From the NCBI GenBank assembly GCA_964352425.1, contig CAYGRZ010000004.1, forward strand, positions 2,647-66,646: a stretch of 64,000 bases of DNA. The letters are read 5' to 3'. The notes under the pieces were generated by a model. The model saw only the letters and a program-made list of their open reading frames with translations, was not told the DNA's origin and searched no databases. Below, in pieces: positions 14,939-38,300 of this stretch (position 1 is the stretch's first letter; every line of letters begins with the position of its first letter). A program made the translations under genes and the position numbers. This DNA is from an uncultured Planctomycetia bacterium. Its GTDB lineage: Bacteria; Omnitrophota; Gorgyraeia; 2-01-FULL-45-10.

Positions 14939-14987
14939 GGTGAATGATACTCCTCTTTATGCTTCGACAGTGCTTGGTATAAATCTA

Positions 14988-19105: not shown

Positions 19106-19127
19106 GGCAAGGCTTCCTCTACATAAA

Positions 19128-19162
19128 GCGGATAGGCGCTTCTGTGAGATGCGCCTATCCGC
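19128..19162 (-). terminator. Perfect 12-bp GC-rich hairpin (gcggataggcgc / gcgcctatccgc, 11-nt loop) 15 nt after the stop of the CBM-only gene. It is probably a partial terminator or an mRNA-stabilising stem-loop.
   Basis: Read directly. It is followed on the minus strand by a TTTATG context and the RBS of the next gene. Confidence 0.5.
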
Positions 19163-19176
19163 TGCGATACCGGTGC

Positions 19177-19800: not shown

Positions 19801-20015
19801 AACCTCCTCCTTTCTTTTTCTTTTTAAACCCTTCGACGCATCCCTGAGCTTAACTCCGGGGTATTTGCTCAGGGTTTATACTGAGCCGTGTCGAAGTATA
19901 AGTCTTTCACCACAGAGTATACTACAGGGCCCATTAAAAACAGGTTAGAAGAATATTATAATTCTCTAATGTGGGGGGCGCCTTCAACCATATTTTTGGG
20001 ACAGTGCCTGACGTG
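19801..20015 (-). promoter_or_regulatory. 215-nt promoter/operator region upstream of the CBM-GH144-TPR-GH94 gene string. It contains an inverted repeat GCTCAG-N8-CTGAGC and three GTATA/TATAC half-sites spaced ~20 bp apart, making it a candidate response-regulator binding site.
   Basis: Direct reading. It lies immediately downstream of the histidine-kinase gene and upstream of 19177..19800. Confidence 0.35.
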
Positions 20016-21488: not shown

Positions 21489-21512
21489 GCGAGGTGCTTA
21501 TGCCCTTTTCCT

Positions 21513-22181: not shown

Positions 22182-22183
22182 TG

Positions 22184-23509: not shown

Positions 23510-23538
23510 CCCGTATGATCCTTTCCTTTATGCCGATG

Positions 23539-25017
23539 TTACATGAAGAAGTAGACTTTAAAATAAACCGTTGGCAGGAAATCGTCGATATTGTAGAAGT
23601 GGTTGCCGCGCACACCGACGTCGACCCGTATGACGCCGGGCGCATAATATTCGAGGCCCGCCAGCCATCCGATATTATCAAAATCAGACATATTGAGACC
23701 GGCGCTGAGATCGAACCCTGCCTGGACCCACAACTTGTCATAGACCCTGTACTGGGCTCTCGATTCCCAGGTAAGGGCCAGAGCCGTGACGTCGAACGGA
23801 GCCGGGAGCGGCATGCCACCTGCATACCCCGGAGGAGCAGCCCACCACGCATTATCCTGGGAATTAGTGTGGCCTAATGCGTATTTCAGCATGGTGTAGC
23901 CTTTGAACCTGTCATTGAAGTCGTGGCCGACACGGCCCGATATCTCGTATTTTTCATATATGTTGCTGAACGGCGAATAGACGTCGATCGAATAGCTGAA
24001 CCGGCCTGTGTAGCTGGTCTTCATGTCTTTCGATTTGAGCCTCAGCTCGCCGGCGATAAGATAATGGTCGGGCTTATACGCCCAATCGCAATTGTAATGA
24101 TTGGATTTAAAATACTCACCCTGAGCGAAGAGTTCGCAGCGGGGGTTCGGCGCGAGCGCCTGATTGATATAGTAGGTGCTTCTATATTCCGTCGACGAAT
24201 GGAAATCCCAGTTATGCAGGGTATCGAATGATTTTTGATTTATATTCGAGAACCGGTACCCTATATTGGACGTGTACATCCACCCGATGGGATCGATCTT
24301 GTCCATCGAGATTATCGAGATGTCGTGCTGGAACCAGTTTGAGGCTTTGAGGTCGGGATATTTCGGATAGTATTCCCTGTACACATCGCGGTAATCCAGG
24401 GTATACCGTATCTGGCCTTGCGTGTCACTCTTGGATGCATTCGGATCGCTTACCGTGAACTCGGTACCGTAGGCCCGCACGGCAAGCGGCACGATGATAC
24501 TTCGGTAATTAGCATGCGTCATCTCTACGCTATTTTGCCGCCAGCGATGGAAATCACTCCATATATACTGCATCTCTTTCGCCATGATCATATAGGCGTC
24601 GATCGGCTTCGGCTCGTTGTATATCTCGATCCTCTGGCCGACGCCTATCGATGGGCTCTTCAGGATCTTTTCGGGTATCTTCACACCGGCGAATGTCTCG
24701 TACGATACCTCGGTGCCTATCCTGTTGGGGTCTATCTTCTTAAGGACATATATCTCTTGCGGCTGTTCGACGGTGGGCAGGTCGATCTTCTCCGCCGGCT
24801 GGCTCAGGGTAAGCTCCTGCTTGGCGTCCGCAGGCTGGCGTGCGGGTTGGGACGGCGCCGGTTGACTCGGCGAGCTCTCTTGGGTGCTCTGAGCCGTCTT
24901 GGTCAGGTTGAGTTCGTCATAATTCTCGGCAGCTGCGAGAGTTATAAAAATAACGGCATACAGGCATGAGATGAAGGTAATGGCGTTGAAGATGGCGCGG
25001 TATTCCTGTCTTCCCAT
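23539..25017 (-). CDS. Putative outer-membrane beta-barrel (porin-like) protein, 492 aa.
   Basis: N-terminal signal-like segment. The sequence is very rich in Tyr/Trp/Gly/Asn with alternating amphipathic beta-strand patterns (LALTWESRAQYRVYDKLWVQAGFDLSAG), and the C-terminus is aromatic-rich (VYFKVYFFM). I recognised no enzymatic motif. Confidence 0.35.
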   Translation of the reverse strand: MGRQEYRAIFNAITFISCLYAVIFITLAAAENYDELNLTKTAQSTQESSPSQPAPSQPARQPADAKQELTLSQPAEKIDLPTVEQPQEIYVLKKIDPNRIGTEVSYETFAGVKIPEKILKSPSIGVGQRIEIYNEPKPIDAYMIMAKEMQYIWSDFHRWRQNSVEMTHANYRSIIVPLAVRAYGTEFTVSDPNASKSDTQGQIRYTLDYRDVYREYYPKYPDLKASNWFQHDISIISMDKIDPIGWMYTSNIGYRFSNINQKSFDTLHNWDFHSSTEYRSTYYINQALAPNPRCELFAQGEYFKSNHYNCDWAYKPDHYLIAGELRLKSKDMKTSYTGRFSYSIDVYSPFSNIYEKYEISGRVGHDFNDRFKGYTMLKYALGHTNSQDNAWWAAPPGYAGGMPLPAPFDVTALALTWESRAQYRVYDKLWVQAGFDLSAGLNMSDFDNIGWLAGLEYYAPGVIRVDVGVRGNHFYNIDDFLPTVYFKVYFFM

Positions 25018-25088
25018 CGGGTCTTCCCCCTTATCGGTTAGATACCAGTATAGTAATATTATGTTCTAATAACATACCTGCATTATCG

Positions 25089-26366
25089 CTATTTGTCAAA
25101 TTTATTTTCGGTTTTACCGGCACTCGTGTCTTTGACGGTGAGGCAGAGGGCTATCCACTTTTTTACGGCATCCAGCCGCATGAACTCGCTCCAGATAAGA
25201 GACGTCCTGTAGTTCTCGATCATGAGAAGCGTGATCCCCACGTCTATGCCGAGATACTCTTCCGCCCACCACCCCTTATCGAGGTTAAAGGCATCCTTGA
25301 AGCCGTATTTGCCGTACAGGAAGTTCTTATGTTGTTCGTGGAGGTTCTTCAGGCCGGCGATCGATGCCTGCCAGTCAAAGACGATCGAACCTGCCATCGC
25401 GCAGGGCGCGATCGTGCCGTCATTCAGGGCCGCGCCGGGTTTGGCGCCGTATCCCTTGTAGCCTTCCGGCCCGAGGCAGGCTGTCAGCCCCCACGAGTTC
25501 TCATCGTATGTCGTGTAGCTGACGGCATTGTCCGCGCAGAAGGCGCGGTTCGCCTTGACCGCGTTGACCGAATTCTCGAAATAGTTTATGCCGCCGTCGT
25601 AGAGGTTGCGGAAGTCGATGAAGGCGTGCGAATACTGGTACGTGAAGAGGCTCCCCGTATAGCAATAGACGACCTTGAAATCTTTGTACGTATCCACGGG
25701 CCGCGCCCACGCCTTCCATGACTCGGCCGGGATCGGATGGGTCGGGGAACCTATCGCGAGGGCGTAGAGTATCATCGCCTCGCTGTACGAGTCCCAGTAA
25801 TACCACAGGAAACCCGATTCCGGTCTCCAGCCCATACACAGGACGGACTTACCGTTCAGCATCCACGGCCAGTCGACCCGCTCGTAGATCTGCCGTGCTA
25901 TCAGCTGGGCCTCTGTCCCCTTAAAATGTTCGCCCGCGTAAAGCGCGCCGGCGATGAAGAGCGCGGTGTCGATCGATGAGACCTCGGAATTCCACGTCCT
26001 TGAGCCCGTACGCATATCGAGGAAATGGTAGAGAAAGCCGTGCTCGTTCGGGACGACGTCCCTGAAGGTCTTCAGCGTCGTTAAGATCCGCTCGTACGCC
26101 TTCTCGCGGTCTATCCAGCCGCGCGATTCGCCGACGCATATCGCGGCGAGGCCGAAGCCCACCGCCGCGACGCTGCAGGGCGCCCCGGGGCGGGAGCTGT
26201 CCTTGATAAGGCCGTTGGCGGGGTTCGCCTGCTGCGCGAAATAGAGGATCGAGTCGTACTCGAGCCGGTCGAGAAATCTTTCGTCGGGAGTGGAAGCTTC
26301 GAGAGGGCAGGCATATCCGAGTACGAGCGATACGGATACCAAAAGGGCTACGGTCTTCAGGGTCAT
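25089..26366 (-). CDS. Secreted GH144/DUF3131-like (alpha/alpha)6 glycoside hydrolase (paralog 3, no CBM). The start is ATG at 26366.
   Basis: The signal peptide MTLKTVALLVSVSLVLGYA starts at the internal Met. The 29-aa Arg/Gly-rich extension in the track ORF overlaps the upstream gene and is rejected. Domain motifs are EHGFLYHFLDMRTG and SIDTALFIAGALYAGEHF. Confidence 0.55.
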   Translation of the reverse strand: MTLKTVALLVSVSLVLGYACPLEASTPDERFLDRLEYDSILYFAQQANPANGLIKDSSRPGAPCSVAAVGFGLAAICVGESRGWIDREKAYERILTTLKTFRDVVPNEHGFLYHFLDMRTGSRTWNSEVSSIDTALFIAGALYAGEHFKGTEAQLIARQIYERVDWPWMLNGKSVLCMGWRPESGFLWYYWDSYSEAMILYALAIGSPTHPIPAESWKAWARPVDTYKDFKVVYCYTGSLFTYQYSHAFIDFRNLYDGGINYFENSVNAVKANRAFCADNAVSYTTYDENSWGLTACLGPEGYKGYGAKPGAALNDGTIAPCAMAGSIVFDWQASIAGLKNLHEQHKNFLYGKYGFKDAFNLDKGWWAEEYLGIDVGITLLMIENYRTSLIWSEFMRLDAVKKWIALCLTVKDTSAGKTENKFDK

Positions 26367-27031
26367 GTCTTGTACTTCGCCAGGACGGCGTCTATCTCCT
26401 TTATCGCCTGCCTCATCGCGTCGGCGTCCTGGCCCTTCACCTGGCCCAGACATGCGCCCATCTTTGATTCGAGCGCCGCGGTAGCCGCTTTTATCCTGCC
26501 AAAATCGCTCTGGAGCGAATCGACCATCGACTCCAGCGCGCCGGCCGTGTCCTTCATCTCGTCCGATTTCCGCAGGCGGAAACTGACGCGAAGGTCGCCG
26601 CCCTGTATGGCAGCGGCCGAGCGCTCTATCCGGTACATGGGGCCGGCGATCTTATGCGAGAAGAATATGCCGGCGATGAAGATGAGGACGAAGAGTATTA
26701 TTATCTTGGGAAGGAGCGACCGGTTGACCGAATGGAGCGCGTCCTTGATCGCCGCGCGTTCCCGCTCGCTCAGGAGCTCCGCCTCCCTGAATATCCGCTC
26801 GAGGCGGTAGTCGCCCTTCTGGTACCTGGCCTGCTCGTAGTCGGCAATGCGACGCGCGGTCTCGAGGTTCTGGGAGACCTTGAACTTCGAGAAATTCTCG
26901 ATGATCGAACCCCACATGCCCAGGTACAGGCCCAGGAAGCTTGCGGCCATCACGACCACGAGCATTCCCACGATCATGAAGGTATATTTGAGCTGGAACT
27001 CTTTCTTGATGAGATAATTCCTGCGCTTCAT
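26363..27031 (-). CDS. Small membrane protein with two TM helices and a HAMP-like domain but no output domain.
   Basis: TM1 and TM2 flank an ~80-aa periplasmic segment. It carries a HAMP-like amphipathic helix pair (HKIAGPMYRIERSAAAIQGGDLRVSF...DEMKDTAGALESMVDSLQ). ATGA overlap (TGA at 26363-5, ATG at 26364-6) couples it to the GH144-like gene. Confidence 0.5.
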   Translation of the reverse strand: MKRRNYLIKKEFQLKYTFMIVGMLVVVMAASFLGLYLGMWGSIIENFSKFKVSQNLETARRIADYEQARYQKGDYRLERIFREAELLSERERAAIKDALHSVNRSLLPKIIILFVLIFIAGIFFSHKIAGPMYRIERSAAAIQGGDLRVSFRLRKSDEMKDTAGALESMVDSLQSDFGRIKAATAALESKMGACLGQVKGQDADAMRQAIKEIDAVLAKYKT

Positions 27032-27086
27032 ATTCCCCTCCCGTATTTAGTGCTCATGATTATATCATACTGGCATAAATAAACAA

Positions 27087-27116
27087 GGGGTCAGGCCCCG
27101 CAATGGGCCTGACCCC
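27087..27116 (-). terminator. Rho-independent terminator following the 2656-aa giant gene.
   Basis: Perfect 12-bp GC stem (ggggtcaggccc / gggcctgacccc) with a 6-nt loop. On the minus strand it is followed by TTGTTTATTTAT. Confidence 0.75.
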
Positions 27117-27146
27117 TGTCAGTAGTGAACGGCCAGTCAGTATGTG

Positions 27147-30100
27147 TTACATGGACCGCAGCGCGGCGAGCTCGGCCTCGTATTTCGCGTGGGCGTCGTT
27201 CAGATTGGCCGGCGTGATGGAAGCAAGCCCCTCGAGCAGCATCTTTACCAGGTCGTCCTTCGTGAACATCTCACCGTTGCTATTCCGCCCTGCCCGGTTC
27301 AGCGCCATAAGGATCTTATCCGGATCCCGGTTGAACCCGATATTGAGCAATATGTTATAGAGGGCGGTCGGCGACATCGGCTTCTCGACCTTTATGATTG
27401 CACTCATGGGCCCGTCGAGCACATTCTTCCTCTTTTCGTCGCTCTTCGCCTTCATCGCATCGTTCACTCTCTTGATGATGGGCTTAAGCCTCGTCTCGAT
27501 TGCCGAGAACGTGTCATTCCCTGTCGCGGCGACGATCGCGAGCTTCTTGCCCGACTTCTCCGCGTCTTTGATAATTTCATTGATCTGGTCTTCGGTATCC
27601 TGGTCGAGAAGATTCGTGCCCTTTCCCCTGAACTCCGTGACCGAGCCGCCGAGGTATTTATTGATGACGACACCGACCTTCTGGACGACCTGCTGGGCAG
27701 CGGGATCGATCGCCGTATCATAGAGGAGTATGATTTTGGTATTGTCGGCGATCGACTTATCGAACCACATCGGCCCGATCGTATTACGGAGAGCGGCCGC
27801 GTCGTCGTCCGCTTCCTTCCGGAGCGCGGCCAGGCGGCCCGCTTCCGCAGGCGTCCGGGCAGGCGGTTCCGTCGAAGCGCCTATACCGATACCCGACAGT
27901 TCCCCGGGAGCCGGAAGCGCCGGTACCGAGGGCTGCGGAGTCTGGCCTGCTTCCTCATCATACGCGGGTTCTGCCGTTTCAGGCTTTACCTCTTCGGGCG
28001 TTTGGGCCTCGAGTCCCTTAAGCCTCGCTATCTCCTTATCGAGCGGGGCGACATTGACCGCGCCCTCCTGGCGCAGGCGTTCGGTGACCTCTTCAGTGAT
28101 GCTGACGAGATCCGCCGGCGTCCTGCCCTCGAATATCGTGGTGAGCTTTTCGCTCGTATTGGACCAGCGCACGAGCGCGGTCCTGCCGTCCTTGAGCTGT
28201 ATCTTGAAGCCTGAAACGGTCACAAATCCATCGTCTTTGGGCTGTATCGTATAATCGTTCTCTTTTTTCGCGTCGCTATAGGCCTTAAGGTCGTTCTTGA
28301 ACCGCTCCTTCATCCACGCGCCGATCTTTTTCGCCGTGGCTATTTTGATAGCATTCGGTATATCGGCCGTCACCTCGCGGCTTGAATACGCGGGCGGGAA
28401 CTTATCGAAAAGCTCCGCAAGCTCGTAGCGCTCCTTGCCGGGCTGAAGCTTGAGCGCAGGCGCCTCATAACGGCTTATCGTCTCGCGTATGTTCATGAGC
28501 GTCACGAAGCCGGAAATGGCGCAGTCGCATACCCTCGACGGATAAGCCTTTGATATGTGGAAGAAGTTGTGGCCCGACGCCTCCGCCGTGAAGTACGTGC
28601 GTTTCAGATTGTCAAAATTCTTCATGAACGCCGCATCGTTCCTGAGTTCCGGCTTACCTGCCACGAACTTTTCGAGCTCGGCGATCCGGTTCTGCATAAA
28701 ACCGAGCTGCGGCGGATAACCCGTCGTGATGAAGTACCCTTCGATGATATTCCTGTCCGTTATGCCTGCCCCGGCCTGCAGCTGGGCGTTGATAGTGTTG
28801 ATGAGGTTTAAGAGCTTCGAGTTTGCCCTGACATCGCAGACGATCCTGATGGGCTCGGCACCCGTCTGCACAAGCCGCATCATGACCTCCTGATTAGACG
28901 GGTTTATAAGGAAGCGCTGGTAATACGGCAGCGTCATCTCGAAGGCCGGGATAGCGCGGCCGGTCTCGTCGATGGCCGATATCCTGTCCGCGTCGCCGTC
29001 GAACACCGCGCCGAAGGCGCGCGGGGTGATCGGGCTGACAGGGTTCGCGTTAATGAGCTTCACCAGCCTCTGCGTCGGCTCAAGGGCTTCCGGAAGCGAC
29101 GGGTCCCATATGCCGCGCCCCATATTGCCGTCGGGAGCCATGTTCAGCATGACGGCTATCCTGCGCGCTCCGCCGTCCCACTCTTTCTTTATTGCCGCAA
29201 TAAGATCGGGCTCTTTCGTCTTGTCCATGTCGATGATCTTGAAACCTCTCTTTTCCAATAGCGCCGTGATGATAGGCCCCGCGGCGCCGGCCCTCGGATC
29301 GATGACCACTATCTCGTCCTTGAGGGTGGCGGGAAGCGTCTCGTTCAGCATATTCACGACGTACTGTTCTATACCGCCCGTCTGGGTTACAGAACCGGCC
29401 GGCACATCGGTACGGACGACCGACCTCTGCTTATACAGGTCTGCGAGCTTCTCCGCATAAAGGGGCTCGAGGACCTTGTTGCCGAGATCGACCTTTATCT
29501 TGAAACCGTTCTTCTCCTTAGGGCCGTGGCTGCCCGAAACCTGGACCATGAACTTGTAGCCGCCGCTGTTCTCGGTCGCCATAAGGTTGTGCGCGCCTGT
29601 CGTGAGGAGGTCCGGTGCATATTCGACATTAACGCCCACCGATGAGATGCCGAGCGCCATGCAATACCTTGATATAGGCGTGTGAAGACGTATGTCGCCG
29701 GTAAGGAGCGCCTTGTCGCCCGGTTTCGCATGATAGGTGCCGAGGAGCTTTCCGACAAGGTACATGTTGGCCGGAGTAAGGTTGGCCTCGATGGTCTTGC
29801 CCATTACTTTGATAGGCTGGGCATTACCCCTGACGTCATACCCATTGCCGAAGCCGAATATGTCCTCCGGCAGCTTCGCGGTGGTTTCACTCAGGTTAGA
29901 TTCGAAATATTTGATGAGGTCCTGTTTCGGCATCGCGACTATCGTCTTGTATGCCTGCGGCAACCCGTCTATAGCGAGCTTGAAATTCGCCTCTAATTCT
30001 GACATTCCGTCTCTCATCAGGAGTGCCTTTCTTACATCATACGTGGACCATTTCGCCTCGATCTGCGCTTCGGATAATTTTCGATTTTCAATATGCGCCT

Positions 30101-33100
30101 TCTCATGCCTGAGCGCTTGAACTATTTTACCCACGCCATCGGGTAAAGACAAGAGATATAATAGGTCCTCCTCGTCCAGATAGGCGACGCGCCTGCCGAT
30201 GCCGGGATGGAATACCATGTCCGTCGCAACCTCACGTTTTTCAAGTTCTTTCGTAAGCCCTTTCACGATAACAACGCCGATGTTGATCGCCGGCAGTTCG
30301 GCCATGAGTTTGCTCAAGTTCCTTTCCTGAATCTCGCTGAGCTGCTGCGTAGGCGCGGAGAAGGGGATATCTATCTCACCCGGCCCGGAAAGGTCGGGCT
30401 GTTTCGCCAGGTAAAGGGTATAGACACTGTCTCTTGCGCGGAACCGCGCGCCGAGGGCCGCGTTCGCGCTTCTTTCATCTTCGTTTATTGTGCCGGCCGT
30501 AAGGCCCCGCGTGCCATGCTCGGCTTCCGTCAGGGCGCCGCCGGCCCCGCGTATCGCGCCGACGGCGCCGGAGGCGATAAGTTCGCTCTGCGGCGCCCAA
30601 CTGCCGAAATACTTTTCCAGCATCGAATAGTCGCCCCGGCTCGCAGCATCTAAATCCATAAGATTCTTTCTCCTGCGCTCATCGGTACGCTTATAGTTTA
30701 TCCTCTTTTGGGCCTGCGAGAACGTGAATCCGCCCAGGCCGGGGTTGGGAAGGCTGAAGAATCCCCCCGGCACATTCTTGACCTTGCTCCACACCAATTC
30801 GGGATCGAGCAAGATATCTGAATGTTCATCGCGGAGGGCATTATACACCACTTCCGCTATGTTATCTTTCGCCGTATCGCTGAGCGCGGACAGATGGAGC
30901 GGGAGCGCTTTGACACCGTCTTTCCTGACTTCATTGGGTATCCCCGCACCATTCGCCAAATACCATCCGAGCGTATCATTGATATTGGGATAGACATCCA
31001 ACAATACTGCCCACCTGCCCATATCGCTCAGATAGTCATTGATCATCGCCTTTATCCCTTTGTCAAATTTAAAAGGCAGGAAGATGGAGCTTCTTGAGAT
31101 CATGACATTGTACCCTCCGCCCGGGGTACCGATGCGGACCGTATTGACATTTTCATCACTGCGCACATTGATGCTCGTCGTGCTCACTTCAGGGAAGAAG
31201 TTGGATATCCTTATATACCCCCGCTTATAGGCGCCCCTGCTGAATGTCACCCTGTCCCAGCGGAAAGCGGCATCCAACACATGCGTCCTGGGCGGCACTC
31301 TCCATACCTTTCCCTTCGGGACGTAGATGGCAACGTTGGACATCACGATCCGGTCAGAGTCTTCCGGTATCTCTATGCTTCCGCCCCCTATTACGCGAAC
31401 GTTGTCTATAAGGTATACCGCATTCCTATTCTTCACTATCAGGTTCTTGCCGACCTCGAGGTTCGTATTGATGAGGTTCTGGTTGGATTCTTTCGGGATC
31501 TGCATACTCATCCGGCCTTCCGGATTAAAAGCGATATACTCGAATAATTGATGGACGGGCGTCAGGTGGCCCGTATCCTGCCAGATATGGCCTTCGCCGA
31601 AATCGAAGCAATACAGCCTCGTCCTGTCTTCTTTCTCAATGTCAAACAAGTTGTCAAACACCTTCTTCAGCTCACGCCAGTCATCCAGATCGATCTTCCC
31701 CTTTTCGCCGGCGATCTCAACGGTAGGCACCATCCCTTCCCACGTCTTCATATCACAGAACCTCGACTGGTAGGCCACGGTCATGTAGCTTACAGGAAGG
31801 GCATCCAGGCCGCAGTAATCTAAGTTGTACCTGGCAAGGGTCTTGCTATTTCTCCTAGAAAATTCCTTCGTTACCTTGACCGCGAATTCTTTGTGAAGGA
31901 TCTCGCCGAATGGGTTCTTATAAAGAGAACCCTTGTCTTCATTCAAATGCGCGATCTGGATGATCTTGAGGTCATCCTTGCACTTCTCCCAGAAACCGCT
32001 CATTTCATAGGCCCTGCGATGGCCCTTCGGATATGCGGTGTATATGCCGAGCTCCTGCAGGTTCTCCGCCTTGATGCGTTGCCTGATCTTCGCCAGCCCC
32101 TCGGAGTTAAGTACGTCCGAAAGCTTTTTCCTCAATGCCTCGTTTGCCATAATTGTATTCCACGCTTCTTTGAGATCACTCTTTCCTGAGATCTCCTGAA
32201 CCGCCTGATCCAGCATCTGCAGCTCTGTCGCTGTATCGATGAGCTGAACACGGGAACCTGAAGTGAGGACGGCGAACTTACCCGCTATCGCCGGATCCTG
32301 CAGAAGTTCCGGAAGATTTGACTTGCCGAGCCACGTGTAATTATCCGACGCGGACCATATCAGCACTTGATCCCGCAATTCTTTGGGCATCATCTTGAGC
32401 ATGGTGAGGTCGACTATGAGGTTAAGCATCCTGGCATCGAGCCCCCTGACAAAGGTCCAGAGGCCTGAATGGAGTCTCCCCAGGGTCTCATTCCCTGCGC
32501 GTGTCTTAAGACCGCCGTCCGTGATGACAACAACGATCTCATTGAGCATCTGCTTATAGAATGCCGCCCACTCATCGTCCGTCAATGAGGGAACCTTCTT
32601 CATCAGGAAATCCTCATACCTGGCGATACCCATCTTCTCCAAGGCGGCTTTATTAAGTTCAAAATACATGCGCAACATATTATTTGTGAACGCGGGGAAG
32701 TCGTGCTTGCGTTCTTCACTGTCCTCAACGGCGAGAACCGGCCGTATTCTGCCTTTCGATATTCTCAGAAGTTCGGCATCTGCCCTGGCATAGAGGTCGG
32801 GGGATTCTTCGTTCATCTGCTTAATATTGGTAAGCGAGTAGGCTTCTACCGTCCCCTCGTAGATCTGGTTCAATGTCGCGTAGACTTCCGCTATGAACTG
32901 ACCAATGTTCTCCACCTTGATCTGCGGGCTGTCCTTGACCGCGTCCCAACCAAGCCGTTTCTGGCCTGCCCTATCGGGTTCCGCTAGATCAGGCATACTG
33001 ACGCCACCCGCTGCTATGTCCCATTTGCCGTTGTTCTTATACGCGACAACTGATGGATTTCCTCTATTACGCATCATGAAGCCGTTCACCCTCTCCCACT

Positions 33101-35117
33101 CGGCCCAGTCAACTTGTGCTCCGCCAGAGAAATATTCGTCCGCCGGCTGCACTATCCCGATCTCCGGCGCCTGAGCAGCTAACGCGTACGTTTCGTTGAA
33201 AGCCCGCTTGAACGGGCTCGAGGACATGATAGCGTCGATGCGAGTCTTGCGCACCTCCGGCTCCACGTTGAGCGTGGCAGCCAGATTTTCGCACGCGACC
33301 TTGTACGCGTTAGACATGAAGTCCCTGTCGTGCGGGATATGTTGCTCGCTGGCATACTTGATCTTCTTCTGCAGCCATAGTTTCACCTGCAGGTAGACAG
33401 CTTCCTCTATAAACCTGTCCATCCTCCCTTTGAGGTAGGGCCCATAAACCTGTTCGAAGCCTTCGGGGTCCGCTTGCTCGAACGCGACGCCGTATGTCGC
33501 CGGCAGCGGCGCGAGCATCCCCTGCTTCGTATCCTGCGGGGCGCCGACGAGGATCTCCTCGAACGGCGTGCGCTGGTTGGTCAGTATCTGGATATAGTTG
33601 GTCGGGACGTCCTTGGTGATCGACGGGCAGACGACGATATATGAGACATCCTGTTTTTCCAGGAGCTTCGCGATGCCTTCCGAGTGGAACCCTCCGGTGA
33701 CGAGCACCGCTATTTTCTGGCCGGCCTTCTCCATACCGTTCAACGTATTTTCGACGAGCGCCTTGTCGCGCTTGATCGCGATATAGTAGAACTCTTCCAG
33801 CTTCGAAACGGCATCCGCGACGGTATCGCTCGGCTCATCGAGTTCGTAGGCCAGGCCGTACTGGATGATCTTGTCCTTTATAAAGGAGCCGAATGCCTCA
33901 TGGGTAAACTCCTCCTTGTGGGTCTTGTAATATTCGAAATCGTCATTGAGGAGCTTTATGCTGACGAGGCCCAGCAGGGTATCTATGTGGCGGGAAAGCT
34001 TCTCGAGGGTGCGCTGGTCGTCATTCTGGAAGAGCTTCTCCTTGATGGCCGTCTCCAGTTTTTTGATCTCCTTGAAGAGCTCTTCGTTCTCTATCTTTGA
34101 ATAGACGCTGTTGTAGATGATATAGTTGTAGAGGTTCGGGTAATCCTTCATCAGGTCGATACCGTTCCTGGTGGCGAGGTTCCTTACGTATACGTAGTAT
34201 TCGGCGGACGACACCTTGCCGACCTTGAACGCGATAGACTGGTTGACGAGTTCCGTGAGGACATCCTTGGTTATACGTTTCGACAGGTCATCGATGAGGG
34301 CGCTGCGCTCCTTGTCGGTCACGTCAAAATCGATCTTCTTCTCGTAGACAAGGACATTGATGAGCTTGAAGAGGTTATCGTACTCGCGCAGGTTTATCCT
34401 GTACTTCTCGGCCTCTGCCTGCAGAAAGCGGATATAGTCGTTGAACGGCAGCTTCTTGGATTCATATTCCGCGGCTTTCGCGTCCATCGCCCTGAGGTCT
34501 TCATTATAGATATAGCCTTTGAGCGTATTGAGGAGCGACTTGATCTGGTTAAAATATTTTTCGGTCTGTTCTTTGAGAGGATAGCTGGAGGTGAACGCGT
34601 TCAGGTTCTCGATGTAATATTCGCGCGTTTCGGCGCCGAAAAGCTTGATTGGAAGGTCAGTGGTGATCGAAAGGAATTCGGGGCCGGTGATCTCGCCCTT
34701 CTTCATGAAGTAGCTGGCGACCTCCTTGCGGACCTCGGCATCGGGGAATGACTTGAACCACGACGTGTCGATGAGCCCGTCCGCACCCTCAACCGATACA
34801 AAGCTCAAATTGTCGTTCTTTATCAGCGTTTCGATGATCTTCGCGATATTTGACTGTGCCTCGAAATTGCAATGGGCGTCCTGGATATGGACTATGAGCA
34901 TGCCGCTCTTTCCGGTGAACTTGGACTTGACGAGGCCGCAATCCCTCGGAATGATGATCTTTTCCGGATCGGTAACACCCTCTTTGGAGGCAGCCGTCTC
35001 GCTCTCAGTCCCTGCCGGGACCGCGAACGCTATGCTCGAAAGGACAAATGACTGCACGATCACGACGCTGATAATCTTCAATAATACTTTACGCGTGCGC
35101 ATTGATTCGATCACCAT
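27147..35117 (-). CDS. Giant secreted multidomain protein (2656 aa) with an embedded alpha-D-phosphohexomutase (phosphoglucomutase/phosphomannomutase) domain and two HExxH-type motifs. The rest is of unknown function.
   Basis: Uninterrupted 7971-nt ORF with an AGGGG SD 5 nt upstream and N-terminal signal peptide MRTRKVLLKIISVVIVQSFVLSSIAFA. The PGM hallmarks appear in the correct order: the phosphoserine loop SGSHGPKEKNGFKIKV (cf. TASHNPKEDNGFK), the metal loop FDGDADRISAIDETG, and the sugar loop TAEASGHNFF (cf. GEESGH). Confidence 0.8.
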   Translation of the reverse strand: MVIESMRTRKVLLKIISVVIVQSFVLSSIAFAVPAGTESETAASKEGVTDPEKIIIPRDCGLVKSKFTGKSGMLIVHIQDAHCNFEAQSNIAKIIETLIKNDNLSFVSVEGADGLIDTSWFKSFPDAEVRKEVASYFMKKGEITGPEFLSITTDLPIKLFGAETREYYIENLNAFTSSYPLKEQTEKYFNQIKSLLNTLKGYIYNEDLRAMDAKAAEYESKKLPFNDYIRFLQAEAEKYRINLREYDNLFKLINVLVYEKKIDFDVTDKERSALIDDLSKRITKDVLTELVNQSIAFKVGKVSSAEYYVYVRNLATRNGIDLMKDYPNLYNYIIYNSVYSKIENEELFKEIKKLETAIKEKLFQNDDQRTLEKLSRHIDTLLGLVSIKLLNDDFEYYKTHKEEFTHEAFGSFIKDKIIQYGLAYELDEPSDTVADAVSKLEEFYYIAIKRDKALVENTLNGMEKAGQKIAVLVTGGFHSEGIAKLLEKQDVSYIVVCPSITKDVPTNYIQILTNQRTPFEEILVGAPQDTKQGMLAPLPATYGVAFEQADPEGFEQVYGPYLKGRMDRFIEEAVYLQVKLWLQKKIKYASEQHIPHDRDFMSNAYKVACENLAATLNVEPEVRKTRIDAIMSSSPFKRAFNETYALAAQAPEIGIVQPADEYFSGGAQVDWAEWERVNGFMMRNRGNPSVVAYKNNGKWDIAAGGVSMPDLAEPDRAGQKRLGWDAVKDSPQIKVENIGQFIAEVYATLNQIYEGTVEAYSLTNIKQMNEESPDLYARADAELLRISKGRIRPVLAVEDSEERKHDFPAFTNNMLRMYFELNKAALEKMGIARYEDFLMKKVPSLTDDEWAAFYKQMLNEIVVVITDGGLKTRAGNETLGRLHSGLWTFVRGLDARMLNLIVDLTMLKMMPKELRDQVLIWSASDNYTWLGKSNLPELLQDPAIAGKFAVLTSGSRVQLIDTATELQMLDQAVQEISGKSDLKEAWNTIMANEALRKKLSDVLNSEGLAKIRQRIKAENLQELGIYTAYPKGHRRAYEMSGFWEKCKDDLKIIQIAHLNEDKGSLYKNPFGEILHKEFAVKVTKEFSRRNSKTLARYNLDYCGLDALPVSYMTVAYQSRFCDMKTWEGMVPTVEIAGEKGKIDLDDWRELKKVFDNLFDIEKEDRTRLYCFDFGEGHIWQDTGHLTPVHQLFEYIAFNPEGRMSMQIPKESNQNLINTNLEVGKNLIVKNRNAVYLIDNVRVIGGGSIEIPEDSDRIVMSNVAIYVPKGKVWRVPPRTHVLDAAFRWDRVTFSRGAYKRGYIRISNFFPEVSTTSINVRSDENVNTVRIGTPGGGYNVMISRSSIFLPFKFDKGIKAMINDYLSDMGRWAVLLDVYPNINDTLGWYLANGAGIPNEVRKDGVKALPLHLSALSDTAKDNIAEVVYNALRDEHSDILLDPELVWSKVKNVPGGFFSLPNPGLGGFTFSQAQKRINYKRTDERRRKNLMDLDAASRGDYSMLEKYFGSWAPQSELIASGAVGAIRGAGGALTEAEHGTRGLTAGTINEDERSANAALGARFRARDSVYTLYLAKQPDLSGPGEIDIPFSAPTQQLSEIQERNLSKLMAELPAINIGVVIVKGLTKELEKREVATDMVFHPGIGRRVAYLDEEDLLYLLSLPDGVGKIVQALRHEKAHIENRKLSEAQIEAKWSTYDVRKALLMRDGMSELEANFKLAIDGLPQAYKTIVAMPKQDLIKYFESNLSETTAKLPEDIFGFGNGYDVRGNAQPIKVMGKTIEANLTPANMYLVGKLLGTYHAKPGDKALLTGDIRLHTPISRYCMALGISSVGVNVEYAPDLLTTGAHNLMATENSGGYKFMVQVSGSHGPKEKNGFKIKVDLGNKVLEPLYAEKLADLYKQRSVVRTDVPAGSVTQTGGIEQYVVNMLNETLPATLKDEIVVIDPRAGAAGPIITALLEKRGFKIIDMDKTKEPDLIAAIKKEWDGGARRIAVMLNMAPDGNMGRGIWDPSLPEALEPTQRLVKLINANPVSPITPRAFGAVFDGDADRISAIDETGRAIPAFEMTLPYYQRFLINPSNQEVMMRLVQTGAEPIRIVCDVRANSKLLNLINTINAQLQAGAGITDRNIIEGYFITTGYPPQLGFMQNRIAELEKFVAGKPELRNDAAFMKNFDNLKRTYFTAEASGHNFFHISKAYPSRVCDCAISGFVTLMNIRETISRYEAPALKLQPGKERYELAELFDKFPPAYSSREVTADIPNAIKIATAKKIGAWMKERFKNDLKAYSDAKKENDYTIQPKDDGFVTVSGFKIQLKDGRTALVRWSNTSEKLTTIFEGRTPADLVSITEEVTERLRQEGAVNVAPLDKEIARLKGLEAQTPEEVKPETAEPAYDEEAGQTPQPSVPALPAPGELSGIGIGASTEPPARTPAEAGRLAALRKEADDDAAALRNTIGPMWFDKSIADNTKIILLYDTAIDPAAQQVVQKVGVVINKYLGGSVTEFRGKGTNLLDQDTEDQINEIIKDAEKSGKKLAIVAATGNDTFSAIETRLKPIIKRVNDAMKAKSDEKRKNVLDGPMSAIIKVEKPMSPTALYNILLNIGFNRDPDKILMALNRAGRNSNGEMFTKDDLVKMLLEGLASITPANLNDAHAKYEAELAALRSM
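28098..29780 (-). other. Phosphoglucomutase/phosphomannomutase-like four-domain module (residues ~1780-2340) inside the 2656-aa protein.
   Basis: The Ser loop at residues 1861-1866 is encoded around nt 29520-29537 and the metal loop FDGDADR at nt 28983-29003. Confidence 0.7.
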
Positions 35118-35172
35118 AAACCCCTCTCTTATAATATATACAGTGAATATACCATAGATAGCATATCAGTAC

Positions 35173-35276
35173 AATTTATGTAGCCCACCCCCGCCCTCTA
35201 AAAGGCTGCTTGGCGGGCCCTAAAGAAGGCGGAGGCGGCTTGGGGGGTAATCTCCATTTCCCCTGCTACATAAATT
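35173..35276 (-). promoter_or_regulatory. Structured element in the 239-nt spacer between the two giant genes. A 12-bp long-range inverted repeat (aatttatgtagc at 35173-84 and gctacataaatt at 35265-76) encloses three copies of GCTTGG(C/G)GG and G/C-complementary tracts.
   Basis: Direct reading of 35118..35356. It could be a transcript-processing site, an attenuator, or the promoter/leader of the 2656-aa gene. Confidence 0.4.
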
Positions 35277-35356
35277 CCGCGCTCAGGGGTGCTTGGCGGC
35301 TCCCTGACGCGTCAAAGATCAATATCAAACTGCTGACTCCCGAATGCCGACCAATC

Positions 35357-38300
35357 TTATGCCGAGCTACGGATCAAGGCTATGCCGTCCCAGTATGCCC
35401 TGAGCTCCGTTCCGTAGTTGAGCGGCAGTATCGGCGGCATGAAGTTATATATATCGCCATTCTTGGTGACGCCCGGAGGCAGCTGGCCTTCCGCGACTGC
35501 ACCCGTTACCATCAGGAAGAGCGCCTCGTACGAATTGATCGCCGGCACGACCTTCACGCCGTTCATCTCGATCTCTTCGGCGACGAGCACCTTTTCTCCG
35601 GCGGACGTGGGCTTTCCAAGTTCTGAGGCCTCTGCAGTGATACCGATATTGCCCATACTCTTCTCGTCCAGGCCTGCGGCATCTACTACATCCGCCCTGA
35701 TGTCGGCGTATGACCGGTCCTTCTTATTGATGAGTTTGATATCATTGACATTGCCCGTGTAACCGGATGCCGCGATAAAGGAGCGCGCTGCTTCCTCTGT
35801 CTTATATATATCTCCATAGATGAAGCAATTGACGACCTCTCCTCCGGCCTGTTTGCCTAGCGCTTCGGCCCTGTTCATGCCCTTGCCGAAGCGTATGTTG
35901 GACATGGCCATCTTCTCTGTCGTCGCCATGGCGAATTTCTTAACCGCGCTCCGGGCCATCAAGCTCTTGAGGGAGGAGGCGTCCGGAAGCTCCATAGGCC
36001 TGTATGCCTTCGTCTTCGTAGCGAGCTCGTCCCTCCGCTTCTCGACGATCGACGTTACTGTGTCGTGTAACCGCTGCCGCAGGGCAGGGTCCTTGGCTGC
36101 TGCCATGCTCGCTGCATCCAGGAGATTGTCCCAGTCCATCTTTTCTGTTCCCGGCAGCATGGCCTTGATCGCCTCGGCGATCTCCTGCCTCGTCGCATCA
36201 TCGATACCGGCCATCGCGAATATCACGTCATAGGCGCGGGCCAGCCTGATCGAGGCGATGTCCTGCTTGAATTCCGCGGATGTTATCTGGCTTACGGGCA
36301 TCGTACCGTCAAGGAGTATGCGGGCGGGGCTTCCTTCTGAAGCCATCTTCCTGAGCTCTTCCTCGCCCGTAACACTGACGACCCTGGTCCCGGTGCCGTA
36401 CGCGCGCCCAACCGCCTCCACCGTTTCGGCGGACGCGCCAGCCAGGCCGATGATGAATGCCGCAGCGCTGACTTTCGCCGGCTTCGGGAGCGGGAGGCCT
36501 TCGGCGGGTTCTTTCATCTCAACTGTCTCTTCCAACCGGTGTATGAGATCGCCGACATATCCTTCGCCCGATGGCTCCCGCGCAGATTCCATCATAAGCG
36601 CCGTTTTGACCGCCTGGTCGGTGATGTACCTTTCATTCACCGTCACGGGCGCAGGGCGCATCCTGTCAAGCTGTTTCCATATGACGTATGCCGCGGCGGC
36701 CGCGGCACCGATCGCAAGCACCATCCACGGCGGGAGCGCCAGATAGACGAATATCCCGAGAAGAATGAACGAACCGGCTTCCACGAGCCTCGGCGTGGTC
36801 GTCGTGGTGGTGGACTGGCCCATCCTCGCGGTGAACTCGGCAATAAATTCCGGCTCATTCTCTATCCTCTCGACGACGACCTGCGTCTTATTTCTGACGA
36901 TCTTATTGATCTCATCGTCCGTTTTCGCCTGCCAGTTTTCGAGCAGGTCGCCGCAGGCAGCGGCAGAGCACTGCCCCGCAACCGTCTTCAGCTCGGGTAT
37001 CATGCCGTATATGACGCCCGGTATCATGAATATATTATATTTTTTCTGCAGGTACAGGCTGAACATGAGCGTTTTATGATACCGCGCCGCGTCGCCGCAG
37101 ATCGTGACCGGCAACCCCCGCTGCGCTGCCTCTTTCACAACGCCTTCGATGATCCCGAGTATCTGTTTGTCATAATCATGGGCGGTGATCCCGCTCCTGT
37201 CCTTCTCCTTGACGCTCGCCGTCATGTCGTTCGAGCCGATACTCAGGAACCGTATCGGCACGAGCCCGTTATCGAGGATCAGCATGAGATTCTCGAACGT
37301 CAGGTTGCCGGCCTTGTCCATAACGAGGTCCCGGTGCTCGACCATGATGCCGATGGGCATCTCGTCCAGCAGCCTGACCACCTCCGCTTTCTCTTTGCGG
37401 GCACTTCTGAACATCTTGTGGTGCTGCGCGGCGAGTTCGTCCATGAACTGCTCGGTCTTTATCTCTTTCAGGAGGTCGCTGATGAAGACGATATCATCCA
37501 TCGTCTTCACCATCGGGAACATCATCCTCAGGTTGTGATAGTCGGATAACATCTGGGCCCGCAGGATCGCGGTTATCTGCGTCTTCAGCGCCTCGCGGCC
37601 TGTCTTCGTCCTGTAGTAATCGAAGCTGTACGGCTTGCCATTCACGCCGGCCAGGCGCTCCGTATCGGGCAGGGCGGGGCATGCTTTATCATCCTGCTTG
37701 TCGAACGTCCTTATCGTGACGGTCTTGTTGGCGAGATTCGCCAGGCCCATATACAGCCGCTCCTGATGAGCAGCGTCAGGCGCCTGGCTTCTGCCGTACA
37801 TAAATTCCGTCCTCGCCAGCGCATTGCCGTTCGCCCCGCTGCTATATGCCGTTCTCAGCGCGCCGAGAGCCCCTTCATCCTCGATGCCGAATTCACCCTT
37901 CTCGAGGTTGTAACCGACGTTGATGTTGGCATAGACCGGGGTTTCGACGCCGTCGAGGGTCCTGACCACCTCATCCGGTTCTTTACTCTGTTTGGAGAGG
38001 TAGTAATCTTTGAGCGCCTTCGCCCTTGCTACCTTGACCGCCATCGCGGCGCCCTGATCGCTCGTCGCGGGTCCGGCATAGAAGTAGGCCTCGAAACCGG
38101 CCTCCGACACGTAGAAAGAGCAGGACGCGTTCGTGTGGGCGAGCTTTGCCAGGACGATCTTCGGCGGGCCCAGCAGCAGCGTCGCGCCCCGCGCCGTAGC
38201 GACGAGGGCGGCATGCTGCGAGGTCGAGCCGCCGGACGAGACGAATGCCTTGACTTTGTATTTCTCCGTGAGCGCGCGCAGGATAAGCTCGTCTTCGATG

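Follow-up and report, generated by a model that had tools for sequence, protein, structure and literature searches.

We propose that the 2,656-residue protein encoded in the DNA analyzed here, a stretch of 64,000 nucleotides (henceforth the window), is a modular multi-enzyme protein from a large family found almost only in Omnitrophota, that its gene is the downstream neighbor of a giant gene, and that it acts as a Sec-exported nucleotide-sugar line. We put the probability of this reading at about one half. The protein consists, in order, of a Sec signal peptide, a domain that we call the head, a nucleotidyltransferase with a left-handed beta-helix, an adapter with an HExxH motif, a phosphohexomutase of the PMM/PGM type, a linker rich in Pro and Glu, and a tail (Table 1). 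Some 1,750 N-terminal residues, left unassigned by the initial annotation, are now largely accounted for by the signal peptide, head, nucleotidyltransferase and adapter, and searches of curated Pfam and NCBIfam profiles and of PDB sequences returned nothing above the curated cut-offs for this part. A phosphohexomutase interconverts hexose-6-P and hexose-1-P, and a nucleotidyltransferase interconverts hexose-1-P plus NTP and NDP-hexose plus PPi. Since these are consecutive steps, we infer from established enzymology that the two cargo enzymes form a fused nucleotide-sugar line.

Table 1. Features of the 2,656-aa protein, its gene and the flanking DNA (positions in the window)
Feature	Residues	Positions	Strand	Remarks
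Whole ORF		27147..35117	(-)	2,656 aa plus stop codon, ATG start
Sec-type signal peptide	1-32	35022..35117	(-)	n-region MVIESMRTRKVLLK, h-region IISVVIVQSFVL, predicted cleavage between A32 and V33
Head, TIKI/ChaN/erythromycin-esterase-fold alpha/beta domain	~50-560	33438..34970	(-)
Sugar-1-phosphate nucleotidyltransferase (NDP-sugar pyrophosphorylase), FKP/GFPP type	725-1395	30933..32945	(-)
Adapter	1515-1715	29973..30575	(-)	GAIR..G, FHPGxxR..Y.DE.D, single HExxH, then conserved E residues
HEKAH (HExxH)	1671-1675	30093-30107	(-)
Four-domain alpha-D-phosphohexomutase (PMM/PGM type)	~1770-2350	28068..29810	(-)
Pro/Glu/Ala-rich linker	~2361-2439	27801..28037	(-)	direct sequence reading
Conserved C-terminal tail (~215 residues)	2440-2656	27150..27800	(-)	ends ..ALRSM; family consensus ALRSL
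Intrinsic-terminator-like hairpin		27086..27117	(-)	13 bp, 10 GC, then TGTTTATTTA
Upstream partner gene, 9,517-aa giant		35357..63910	(-)	~19 hydrophobic helices, radical SAM domain, PEP-utilizers_C

The N-terminal segment and predicted topology

By applying the n/h/c and -3/-1 rules by hand, we found a positively charged n-region, an h-region of only ~13 residues (within the 7-15 residues of a Sec signal cleaved by SPase I), and a polar c-region (SSIAFA / S-N-I-A-F-A) in which -3 and -1 are occupied by small residues; there is no lipobox Cys. The classical signal peptide of the initial annotation is thus borne out, and its pattern extends across the family: of 110 homologues, 109 have A or G at -1, every one has A, S, G, V, T or C at -3, 84 have F at -2 and 107 have K or R at position 14. 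A lipoprotein reading was rejected for want of a Cys at +1, and a Tat signal for want of a twin-arginine motif. This N-terminal segment is the sole strongly hydrophobic stretch of the protein, no further transmembrane segment reaching a Kyte-Doolittle mean of 1.6. At the threshold used, a later hydrophobic segment is absent from 108 of 118 homologues, while each of the other 10 has one borderline segment. The charge flanking the hydrophobic segment is +3.6 before it and net negative after it, a distribution that predicts an N-in/C-out orientation, so that even an uncleaved anchor would place the enzymes outside.

A signal anchor with a cytoplasmic PGM had been put forward as the alternative. 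In its fuller form, the uncleaved N-terminal segment would be a monotopic or re-entrant tether, or would be docked in the transmembrane bundle of the giant, and the enzymes would form a metabolon on the cytoplasmic face that makes NDP-sugars for glycosyltransferases from hexose phosphates that are imported or come from phosphorolysis. The cargo enzymes of the family do use NTPs and sugar phosphates, in several genomes the gene adjoins sugar ABC transporters or importers and ROK proteins, Q, S and N occur within the hydrophobic segment, whose sequence is unusually conserved, and West-Roberts et al., in the available passages of their preprint, themselves suspected mislocalization of such domains. 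Against this, a ~13-residue h-region is too short for a bilayer, a polar c-region of the A-x-A type with a small -1 residue is present in ~99% of homologues, the charges predict the opposite orientation, and the second segment needed to return the cargo to the cytoplasm is lacking in nearly all homologues. Many characterized TIKI-superfamily proteins work outside the producing cell, which suits an extracytoplasmic head. Judged by sequence rules, topology speaks against a signal anchor that leaves the PGM in the cytoplasm, the cytoplasmic-face metabolon is possible but doubtful, and export of the 2,656-aa protein is favored. The strongly conserved F..SN(I/V)xFA could signify something besides generic Sec targeting.

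The head-bearing family and its giant neighbor

The signal peptide and head are common to all of the best 120 homologues (head identity 32-71%, mostly 42-71%). The tail is found again in part of the head family. The middle is made up of swappable sugar-phosphate and nucleotide-sugar enzymes: PGM is carried by about 80 of the best 120 homologues, and the variable enzyme Pfams among them are PGM, UDPGP, PFK, PGI, transaldolase, PGK, CofD, NTP_transferase and ROK. A genome scan confirmed 161 sites encoding relatives in GTDB species genomes, nearly all of them from Omnitrophota, and 80 listed loci are labeled as Omnitrophota, as unclassified or "Planctomycetia" MAGs and, in one case, as Actinomycetes.

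The head has the core parallel beta-sheet alpha/beta fold of the TIKI/TraB/ChaN/erythromycin-esterase superfamily, interrupted by a helical insertion of ~300 residues (~165-465). Its residues D80 and H82 (a D-x-H in IQDAHCN), E110 (VEGA) and H478 (GGFH) are the same in all 24 sequences compared, and a predicted core beta-strand immediately precedes each of them. In TIKI enzymes the active site is a 2His/2Glu set close to the core strands (PMC6254334); in a comparison by sequence rather than in 3D, the first acidic residue of the D-x-H/E/H set of the head is Asp instead. Matches to PF04187 stay below threshold in 14 of 24 members (best E 0.013), the head of the 2,656-aa protein has no curated profile match of the PF04187 or PF01963 type, and we found no description of a TIKI/ChaN-type domain in Omnitrophota in the literature. 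We speculate that a head with this D-x-H/E/H set is most likely a peptidase or esterase.

The adapter is present in ~34 of the best 120 homologues, two of which (P0015 and P0016) have two copies each. In 21 copies, H157, E158, E169, D119, G125, R128 and Y132 of the adapter are invariant and H161 is nearly so. It has no sequence match in Pfam, NCBIfam or the PDB, and a homology search with the adapter profile returned one protein against ~34 copies known, a result that we do not take as rarity. Only one of the two HExxH motifs previously listed exists in the protein, HEKAH at residue 1671; the chance expectation for HExxH in 2,656 residues of this composition is 0.025. Speculatively, the adapter may serve in processing or as a hinge, as a small element resembling zinc peptidases. 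In 34 homologues the tail lies at the C-terminus or at most 83 residues from it, and in 23 it forms the very end. Its sequence pattern looks alpha/beta, and it has no PDB match and no Pfam or NCBIfam match at curated thresholds. Assignment of the tail to the HAD phosphatases was rejected, as matches were weak, came from 5 of 18 members and lacked the DxD motif.

The head family is almost always the conserved downstream neighbor of giant multi-transmembrane ("Archaeovorin-like") genes. In the window, 239 nt separate the gene from the 9,517-aa ORF that precedes it on the same strand, and we saw no terminator-like site between the two. The transcriptional pairing that had been read from this arrangement is not upheld, several relatives having near-consensus promoters directly 5' of their own copy. 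In most related loci a long same-strand ORF immediately precedes the head-family gene. Among 31 loci with ~10 kb of upstream flank, this upstream ORF comprises at least 2,800 aa and runs off the edge of the locus in 17, and most of the remaining 14 have one of at least 1,000 aa on the same strand. By BLAST, the 2,656-aa protein and its 9,517-aa neighbor share no module, and in 85 loci the head, adapter and tail profiles hit head-family ORFs only and left the upstream giants, as far as visible, without a match. Two regions of the giant resemble export components at sub-threshold Pfam scores, residues 615-807 the SecA P-loop (21.1 versus 27 bits) and residues 3290-3475 OEP/TolC (20.9 versus 22 bits). 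Other neighbors include signal-peptide-bearing glucan enzymes, namely GH144-like glucanases and a GH94 phosphorylase-family protein; the GH94 protein of the window also has a classical signal peptide.

This tight, conserved linkage to a giant gene with SecA-like and OEP-like regions might also mean that the proteins are effectors, whose constant head and tail would deliver and process variable metabolic enzymes inside an attached prey or host cell that can supply NTPs and sugar phosphates. The dedicated translocon would be the giant, equipped with a SecA-like motor, membrane helices and a TolC-like region, in an arrangement like that of MARTX or polymorphic toxins. Constant ends around variable cargo would fit, Omnitrophota have been described as epibionts or predators, and both RRSP, a MARTX effector, and HopBA1, a type III effector, are relatives with the TIKI fold. 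Yet we found no translocation domain or autoprocessing protease, the SecA and OEP matches lie under the Pfam cut-offs, housekeeping-type enzymes would be odd toxins, and nothing evidences delivery directly. We consider such prey delivery improbable.

The enzyme modules and the reading frame

The Ser, metal and sugar loops of the PGM type noted at first do occur in canonical order (SHGPKEKNGFK at residues 1863-1873, FDGDADR at 2039-2045 and EASGH at 2179-2183), and they are followed by a phosphate loop, RWSNTSE (2317-2323). Their expected alignment to three Pfam domains held for two, PF02878 (PGM_PMM_I; E 1e-8, 35.4 bits against a cut-off of 22.5) and PF02879 (PGM_PMM_II; E 1.8e-7, 32.1 bits against 29.3). 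For PF02880 (domain III), Pfam gave no match in the 2,656-aa protein, though many family members match, and PF00408 (domain IV) remained below its cut-off (17.5 versus 23.1 bits); domains III and IV are thus divergent as judged by Pfam. In an alignment to solved PMM/PGM chains (the 3uw2 and 1k35 group), SGSHGP (residues 1861-1866), the phosphoserine loop (T/S)-x-S-H-x-P, corresponds to TGSHNP of 3uw2 and 4mrq, FDGDADR, the metal loop D-x-D-x-D-R, to FDGDGDR, and VRWSNTSE, within which RWSNTS pairs with RSSNTT/RASNTT, to ARSSNTT and VRASNTT, the phosphate loop R-x-S-x-T. All four loops, the sugar loop as TAEASGHNFFH, are at least 90% conserved across 15 family PGM modules with just 51-71% overall identity. 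The module is apparently competent.

The beta-helix-like stretch suspected around residues 1240-1350 proved real: it is the left-handed beta-helix that forms the C-terminal part of the nucleotidyltransferase module, where it follows a GT-A-like nucleotidyltransferase fold. The module contains TDGGLKTRAG (866-875) and GFWEK (1041-1045). We take TDGGLKTR and GFWEK to be the G-G-x-x-(T/S)-R NTP-binding loop and the (F/V)-x-E-K sugar-phosphate motif of RmlA, GlgC and GMPP. Across 14 sequences with ~25% identity, the D, G, G and R of the first and the F and K of the second are invariant, and the E of the second is at least 90% conserved. Neither residues 651-1500 nor the A2 profile matched Pfam (NTP_transferase, UDPGP, Fucokinase), NCBIfam or PDB sequences, and membership of residues 725-1395 in the nucleotidyltransferases is at the level of the fold only. 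Relatives of the module are very rare, numbering 16 among 1.84e9 representatives. A separate homology search with residues 651-1500 was empty even of the identical protein, and we do not take this emptiness as rarity. Signal-peptide-like N-termini also occur on the rare relatives of this module.

The divergence of PGM domains III and IV and the lack of any Pfam match for the nucleotidyltransferase could mean that the enzyme-like modules are non-catalytic and would serve a surface protein by binding sugar phosphates or glycans or as a scaffold, their catalytic-looking loops being relics. The conservation of all four PGM loops, and of the GGxKTR and FxEK motifs (invariant or nearly so), amid low overall identity argues instead for selection on catalysis, and makes relic loops very improbable.

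ORF calling and translation returned an intact reading frame. As first annotated, the gene ends in a clean intrinsic terminator, a hairpin with a T-tract ~30 nt past the stop codon. Although head, cargo and tail are separate consecutive ORFs in a few relatives (L014, L019), it is scarcely credible that the contig is a chimera or that a sequencing error fused separate genes, and the misassembly mooted at the outset falls away, as a separate, independent Logan assembly of one run (ERR3804374) encodes the same protein, full-length relatives such as P0002, P0003 and P0006 are co-linear with it, the GC content is uniform, and the RBS, start codon and terminator of the gene are clean.

Proposed role and relation to known systems

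Under the preferred reading, a Sec-exported nucleotide-sugar line, sequence rules suggest that the precursor would be exported and cut after A32, and the enzymes would be active beyond the cytoplasmic membrane, either in the periplasm or in the cell coat, with the protein probably kept beside the giant by its head or tail. The exported enzymes would work together with the neighboring GH144-like glucanases and GH94 phosphorylase-family protein: phosphorolysis, which needs only phosphate, could yield extracellular hexose-1-P without ATP, and the mutase could convert it. Several observations run counter to export. In the synthetic direction the nucleotidyltransferase requires NTP, PFK, PGK and ROK-type kinases occur elsewhere in the family, and the neighboring sugar ABC importers and ROK proteins would also suit a cytoplasmic pathway for imported sugars. 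We know of no NTP source outside the cytoplasmic membrane. The functions given here to head, adapter and tail are ones that we infer. It is unlikely that matters go further still, part of the sugar-phosphate and nucleotide-sugar metabolism of Omnitrophota running outside the cytoplasmic membrane (periplasm or cell coat) or in attached prey. Signal-peptide-bearing phosphorylases such as the GH94 protein would then form hexose-1-P from glucans with phosphate alone and pass it to the exported PGM and nucleotidyltransferase, the giant would be a dedicated machine for export and docking, and the unusually conserved signal peptide, the head and the tail would serve for recognition and processing.

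The Omnitrophota giants are too large for experimental handling. The partner family is much smaller (1.5-4 kaa) and is found in well over a hundred species genomes, almost always beside a giant gene. Its discrete, expressible parts (head, adapter, FKP-like nucleotidyltransferase, PGM and tail) therefore offer a tractable handle on two questions: whether cytoplasm-type sugar-phosphate enzymes are really outside the membrane, and how the giants are serviced. If export is confirmed, the assumed confinement of sugar-phosphate and nucleotide-sugar chemistry to the cytoplasm would be challenged; if it is refuted, signal-peptide and topology predictions would prove systematically misleading for Omnitrophota, and published interpretations of giant proteins would be affected.

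Among known systems, the phosphohexomutase module shares its four-domain order and its Ser, metal, phosphate and putative sugar loops with PMM/PGM (P. aeruginosa 1k35; 3uw2). Whereas the classical enzymes are soluble and cytoplasmic, this one is embedded in a large exported-type protein, and its domains III and IV are divergent, with insertions. The nucleotidyltransferase module is ~10% identical to FKP, the bifunctional L-fucokinase/L-fucose-1-P guanylyltransferase (PDB 9iis, 9iit), and to GMPPB and GlgC/AGPase; unlike FKP it has no kinase domain, and unlike all of these it is embedded in a signal-peptide protein. With the TIKI/TraB/ChaN/Ere superfamily (ChaN 2g5g, HopBA1 5t09, EreC 6xcq, RRSP 5w6l), many members of which act outside the producer's cytoplasm, the head has in common the parallel beta-sheet core and, by sequence, an acidic-x-His, a Glu and a His after predicted core strands. 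MARTX and polymorphic toxins are an analogy of architecture only: conserved ends flank swappable enzymatic cargo and a TIKI-fold domain occurs in both, but the cargo here consists of central-metabolism enzymes rather than toxins, and repeat regions, a CPD protease and evidence of translocation are lacking.

The closest comparison is with the Omnitrophota giants ("Archaeovorins" and related proteins). The available passages of two preprints, which set size thresholds of >30,000 aa (West-Roberts et al. 2023, bioRxiv 10.1101/2023.11.21.568195) and at least 10,000 aa (10.64898/2026.06.07.730766), already describe large Omnitrophota proteins with PGM and further glycolytic domains for which an extracellular location is predicted. 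The initial annotation had found a signal-peptide-bearing large protein with a phosphohexomutase unexpected; its core reading holds, and does so family-wide, but the surprise is reduced, since this Omnitrophota family trait, the oddity of an exported PGM, had been touched on there. In those passages and in a full-text term search of the two preprints we found no mention of the head, adapter and tail, and the family that they define is not reported in the parts covered. An Archaeovorin exceeds 30,000 aa and has a divergent SecA DEAD domain besides numerous transmembrane helices; the protein described here has 2,656 aa, a single signal peptide as its one hydrophobic segment, no transmembrane helices and no SecA match. 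Its upstream neighbor is similar to the Archaeovorin type but shorter, with ~19 helices in 9,517 aa and a SecA P-loop that scores below threshold. As far as the available passages go, the giants and the 2,656-aa protein share a phylum, their loci and sugar-metabolic domains including PGM/PMM, and both are predicted extracytoplasmic enzymes with glycoside hydrolase and sugar-import genes as neighbors.

A phosphohexomutase and a candidate nucleotidyltransferase in one protein

The ORF of 2,656 codons is intact, starts with an ATG preceded by GAGAGGGG, and ends before the terminator that the initial annotation had placed there; 10 of the 13 bp in the terminator stem are GC, and a T-tract is present. 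The three phosphohexomutase (PGM) loops described in that annotation were all located (residues 1863-1873, 2039-2045 and 2179-2183). The module aligns with PMM/PGM enzymes of solved structure, pairing SGSHGP with TGSHNP, FDGDADR with FDGDGDR, and VRWSNTS with ARSSNTT and VRASNTT. The expected agreement with Pfam held for PGM_PMM_I and PGM_PMM_II, which pass their cut-offs, but not for domain III, which found no Pfam match in the protein, or for domain IV, which is weak (17.5 bits against a cut-off of 23.1). The NCBIfam models GlmM and PgmG match the module in part, and all four PGM loops are at least 90% conserved among 15 family modules, whose overall identity to this one is 51-71%. The phosphohexomutase is, judged by these alignments, real.

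When 1.84 billion representatives were searched exhaustively with HMMER, the module preceding it had only 16 relatives at E <= 1e-3, none of them with a Pfam match to the region. Its list of structural relatives is headed by the GDP-fucose pyrophosphorylase half of FKP (21.1, 383 aligned residues), followed by GMPPB (12.6), ADP-glucose pyrophosphorylase and VTC1 (both 12.1), UDP-glucose pyrophosphorylases (11.7 and below) and, for the C-terminal strands, hexapeptide acyltransferases (~8). The FKP half, GMPPB and the pyrophosphorylases thus identify the middle module, at the level of predicted structure, as a sugar-1-phosphate nucleotidyltransferase with a left-handed beta-helix, and this helix accounts for the parallel beta-helix-like stretch noted initially around residues 1240-1350. 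An alignment of the module (A2) retains DGGxKTR, SDN, FxEK and LYKNPF. Together with the PGM it would catalyze two consecutive steps, hexose-6-P <-> hexose-1-P <-> NDP-hexose, and the same pairing (PGM with UDPGP or NTP_transferase) occurs elsewhere in the head family, the Omnitrophota proteins that share the N-terminal head. Seven relatives of the FKP-like module have signal-peptide-like N-termini (P0123, P0124, P0126, P0128, P0129, P0132 and P0135), and some relatives carry strongly diverged heads, for example VVLIQDLHAHLDTQ.

Features of the 2,656-aa protein and its surroundings
Feature	Window position	Strand	Residues	Details
2,656-aa ORF	27147..35117	-		
Head			~50-560	
Middle module			725-1395	predicted nucleotidyltransferase
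Adapter			1515-1715	
PGM_PMM_I			1773-1895	Pfam, 35.4 bits (cut-off 22.5)
PGM_PMM_II			1919-2053	Pfam, 32.1 bits (cut-off 29.3)
Pro/Glu-rich linker			~2361-2439	directly before tail
Tail			2440-2656	family consensus ending ...ALRSL
Terminator	27117-27086			
Spacer	35118..35356	-		239 nt
Giant	35357..63910	-		9,517 aa, ~19 hydrophobic helices
SecA P-loop-like region of giant	61490-62068	-	615-807	sub-threshold
OEP/TolC-like region of giant	53486-54043	-	3290-3475	sub-threshold
Radical SAM domain of giant	40586-40993	-		
PEP-utilizers_C of giant	37061-37855	-		
Putative beta-1,2-glucan utilisation locus	588..27031	-		
GH94-family protein	8696..14938	-		2,080 aa; two GH94 supersandwich domains and catalytic domain

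A shared head with variable cargo

All named homologues belong to Candidatus Omnitrophota. The best 120 homologues are ~1,500-4,000 aa long and every one aligns with residues ~1-540/650 (identity 32-71%, mostly 42-71%), while residues ~1515-1703, the PGM and residues ~2440-2656 are each aligned by subsets only, and residues 650-1450 by none of the 120. Precomputed Pfam content differs between homologues: PGM/PMM is present in ~80 of the 120, and other cargo comprises UDPGP, PFK, two kinds of PGI, transaldolase, PGK, CofD, NTP_transferase, ROK and an epimerase. Pattern scanning across GTDB, with one genome for each species, confirmed 161 sites encoding relatives; the 80 loci listed are labelled Omnitrophota, unclassified or 'Planctomycetia' MAGs, plus one Actinomycetes. 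A homologue search with internal segments missed an identical protein and dozens of known relatives, so its negatives do not equate to rarity.

The head has no above-threshold match in any sequence library. Its AlphaFold model (pLDDT 81.5, pTM 0.67) has an alpha/beta core broken by a helical insertion of ~300 residues, and the listed structural comparators are ChaN (10.5), HopBA1 (10.4), two EreA-like 'succinoglycan biosynthesis' proteins (10.2 and 9.9), a TraB protein (9.4), EreC (9.3) and the MARTX effector RRSP (8.6), all seven from the TIKI/TraB/ChaN/erythromycin-esterase superfamily. Sub-threshold matches to PF04187 (the ChaN/Tiki model) in 14 of 24 head members were counted as independent support. 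Active enzymes of this superfamily carry a 2His/2Glu set near the core strands (PMC6254334). In the head, D80-x-H82, E110 and H478 do not vary, and each comes just after a strand predicted for the core (24-member alignment and AlphaFold model), which makes a hydrolase function, either peptidase or esterase, plausible. Invariant motifs across the 24 diverse members (A1 alignment) are IQDAHCNxEAQ, VEGAxGxxDTxWF, YFMKKGEITGxEF, GGFH, ITK and LTNQ. Within the helical insertion, PF23202 (ZNF598 PAH domain) matched 21 of 24 sequences (best E 3.7e-6) and DUF1722 matched 13 of 24; these matches may reflect generic helical similarity.

Head-only ORFs of ~525-710 aa occur at several loci (L014, L019, L032, L077, L083, L084 and L085), with lengths of ~530-560 aa in some genomes, and at L014 and L019 head, cargo and tail are consecutive same-strand ORFs, which argues that the head is an autonomous unit; the split ORFs could stem from gene fission or from frameshift errors. 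The adapter is found in ~34 of the best 120 homologues, with two copies each in P0015 and P0016, and has the conserved pattern GAIR..GG.LT..EH ... FHPGxxR..Y.DE.D ... HExxH ... E (A3 alignment) without matches to known families. A single HExxH was found in the protein, at residue 1671 (chance expectation from composition 0.025), where two had been claimed. Our guess from the pattern is that the adapter might be a small zinc-peptidase-like or metal-binding hinge. The tail lies at the C-terminus or at most 83 residues from it in 34 homologues, at the very end in 23, and gives weak HAD-like hints. Adapter and tail profiles match head-family ORFs only (85 loci examined).

Upstream giant and downstream glucan locus

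The upstream giant shares no module with the 2,656-aa protein by BLAST. Its N-terminus has no signal peptide, a low-complexity stretch around residues 100-210 is rich in Glu, Ala, Arg and Lys, and the hydrophobic helices cluster at residues ~1018-1376, 5426-5690, 6749-7041 and 9049. The head-family gene likewise comes after a gene of 3,700 to over 6,400 aa, and before genes for sugar ABC transporters and glycoside hydrolases, in GCA_026387175.1, GCA_014728045.1 and an ENA contig. Upstream flank of ~10 kb is available at 31 loci; at 17 of them an upstream ORF on the same strand extends over at least 2,800 aa and past the edge, and most of the others have an upstream ORF of at least 1,000 aa. 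Immediately before the head-family gene at L006, L008, L009 and L015 (70 nt before the start) are sigma-70 promoters close to consensus (TTGACA-17-TATAAT-like), which suggests that in several relatives the gene is transcribed independently of the giant gene. The adjacency is thus conserved, but does not of itself show co-transcription. In the spacer between the two genes, a GCC(C)GCCAAGCA motif occurs twice; there is also a G+C-rich inverted repeat (GCCCGCC...GGCGGGG) that lacks a T-tract, and an AT-rich stretch with TATATT and TATTAT immediately ahead of the RBS.

The putative glucan locus downstream encodes three PF10091 'Glycoamylase' (GH144-type) proteins, CBM11-like and CBM30-like proteins, a lipoprotein solute-binding protein, two ABC permeases, a HAMP protein, a two-component system (histidine kinase and response regulator), a ROK protein and an M48 peptidase. 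The order HAMP-GH144-SBP-RR-HK-CBM also lies behind the homologue in GCA_026387175.1 (L002). GH94 phosphorylases are cytoplasmic as a rule; the GH94 protein of this locus has a classical signal peptide at its N-terminus (MFRRGLRIMAALAVLAAASASIA|E), and Pfam matches nothing in its first ~1,000 residues.

N-terminus, localisation and relation to described giant proteins

Residues 15-33 form a hydrophobic segment (Kyte-Doolittle mean 2.38, at most 1.53 elsewhere in the protein), and 88 of 118 homologues have exactly one such N-terminal segment and none later, a further 20 falling just below threshold. Column statistics over 110 homologues give a classical tripartite signal peptide: K or R at position 14 (107 of 110), an h-region of ~13 residues, a polar c-region S-N-(I/V)-(A/S/G)-F-A, A or G at -1 (109), F at -2 (84), and A, S, G, V, T or C at -3 (all 110). 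The N-terminus has neither a lipobox Cys nor a twin-arginine motif. With signal-peptide and topology rules applied by hand, the pattern favours SPase-I cleavage after A32. Mean charges in the homologues are +3.6/-0.4 in the n-region and +1.9/-2.8 in the 20 residues past the segment. Even if uncleaved, the segment would by these charges lie N-in/C-out, which topologically disfavours the signal anchor with a cytoplasmic PGM that had been proposed as an alternative.

Identity and architecture of the protein are well supported. As to localisation, sequence rules and family-wide conservation favour export. Nucleotidyltransferases, PFK, PGK and kinases use NTPs, so the chemistry of the cargo points to a cytoplasm, that of the producer or of a prey. 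We assign a probability of about 0.5 to a model in which the protein would be exported, its signal peptide cleaved, and the mature form would act in the envelope alongside the giant and the exported glucan enzymes, with GH94 phosphorolysis supplying hexose-1-P without ATP to a mutase that is likewise ATP-free. A tether at the cytoplasmic face would suit the NTP chemistry and runs against the charge-based topology; we consider it unlikely, though the foremost of the rivals. MARTX-like delivery would place the enzymes in the prey's cytoplasm and is improbable. Modules devoid of catalysis, set beside PGM loops so conserved, are a still poorer prospect. An artefact is scarcely credible: the ORF is genuine, since the same protein came from an independent Logan assembly (one sequencing run).

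In the available text of their preprint, West-Roberts et al. met the same conflict between export and chemistry and left it open (10.1101/2023.11.21.568195), and that of a 2026 preprint leans towards periplasmic or extracellular placement (10.64898/2026.06.07.730766). Both texts already describe large Omnitrophota proteins with PGM and other domains of glycolysis, and the puzzle of where these are predicted to lie; the size thresholds of the two studies are >30,000 aa and at least 10,000 aa, respectively. Neither the available text nor a full-text term search yielded a mention of a family of 1.5-4 kaa that has a TIKI-fold head, or of the HExxH adapter, the tail or an FKP-type module. The main interest of the head family is that it offers a tractable way into giant-protein biology. 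The 9,517-aa neighbour agrees with the giant proteins described for Omnitrophota in the available text, with their numerous transmembrane helices, pyruvate phosphate dikinase domains and divergent SecA domains (10.1101/2023.11.21.568195).
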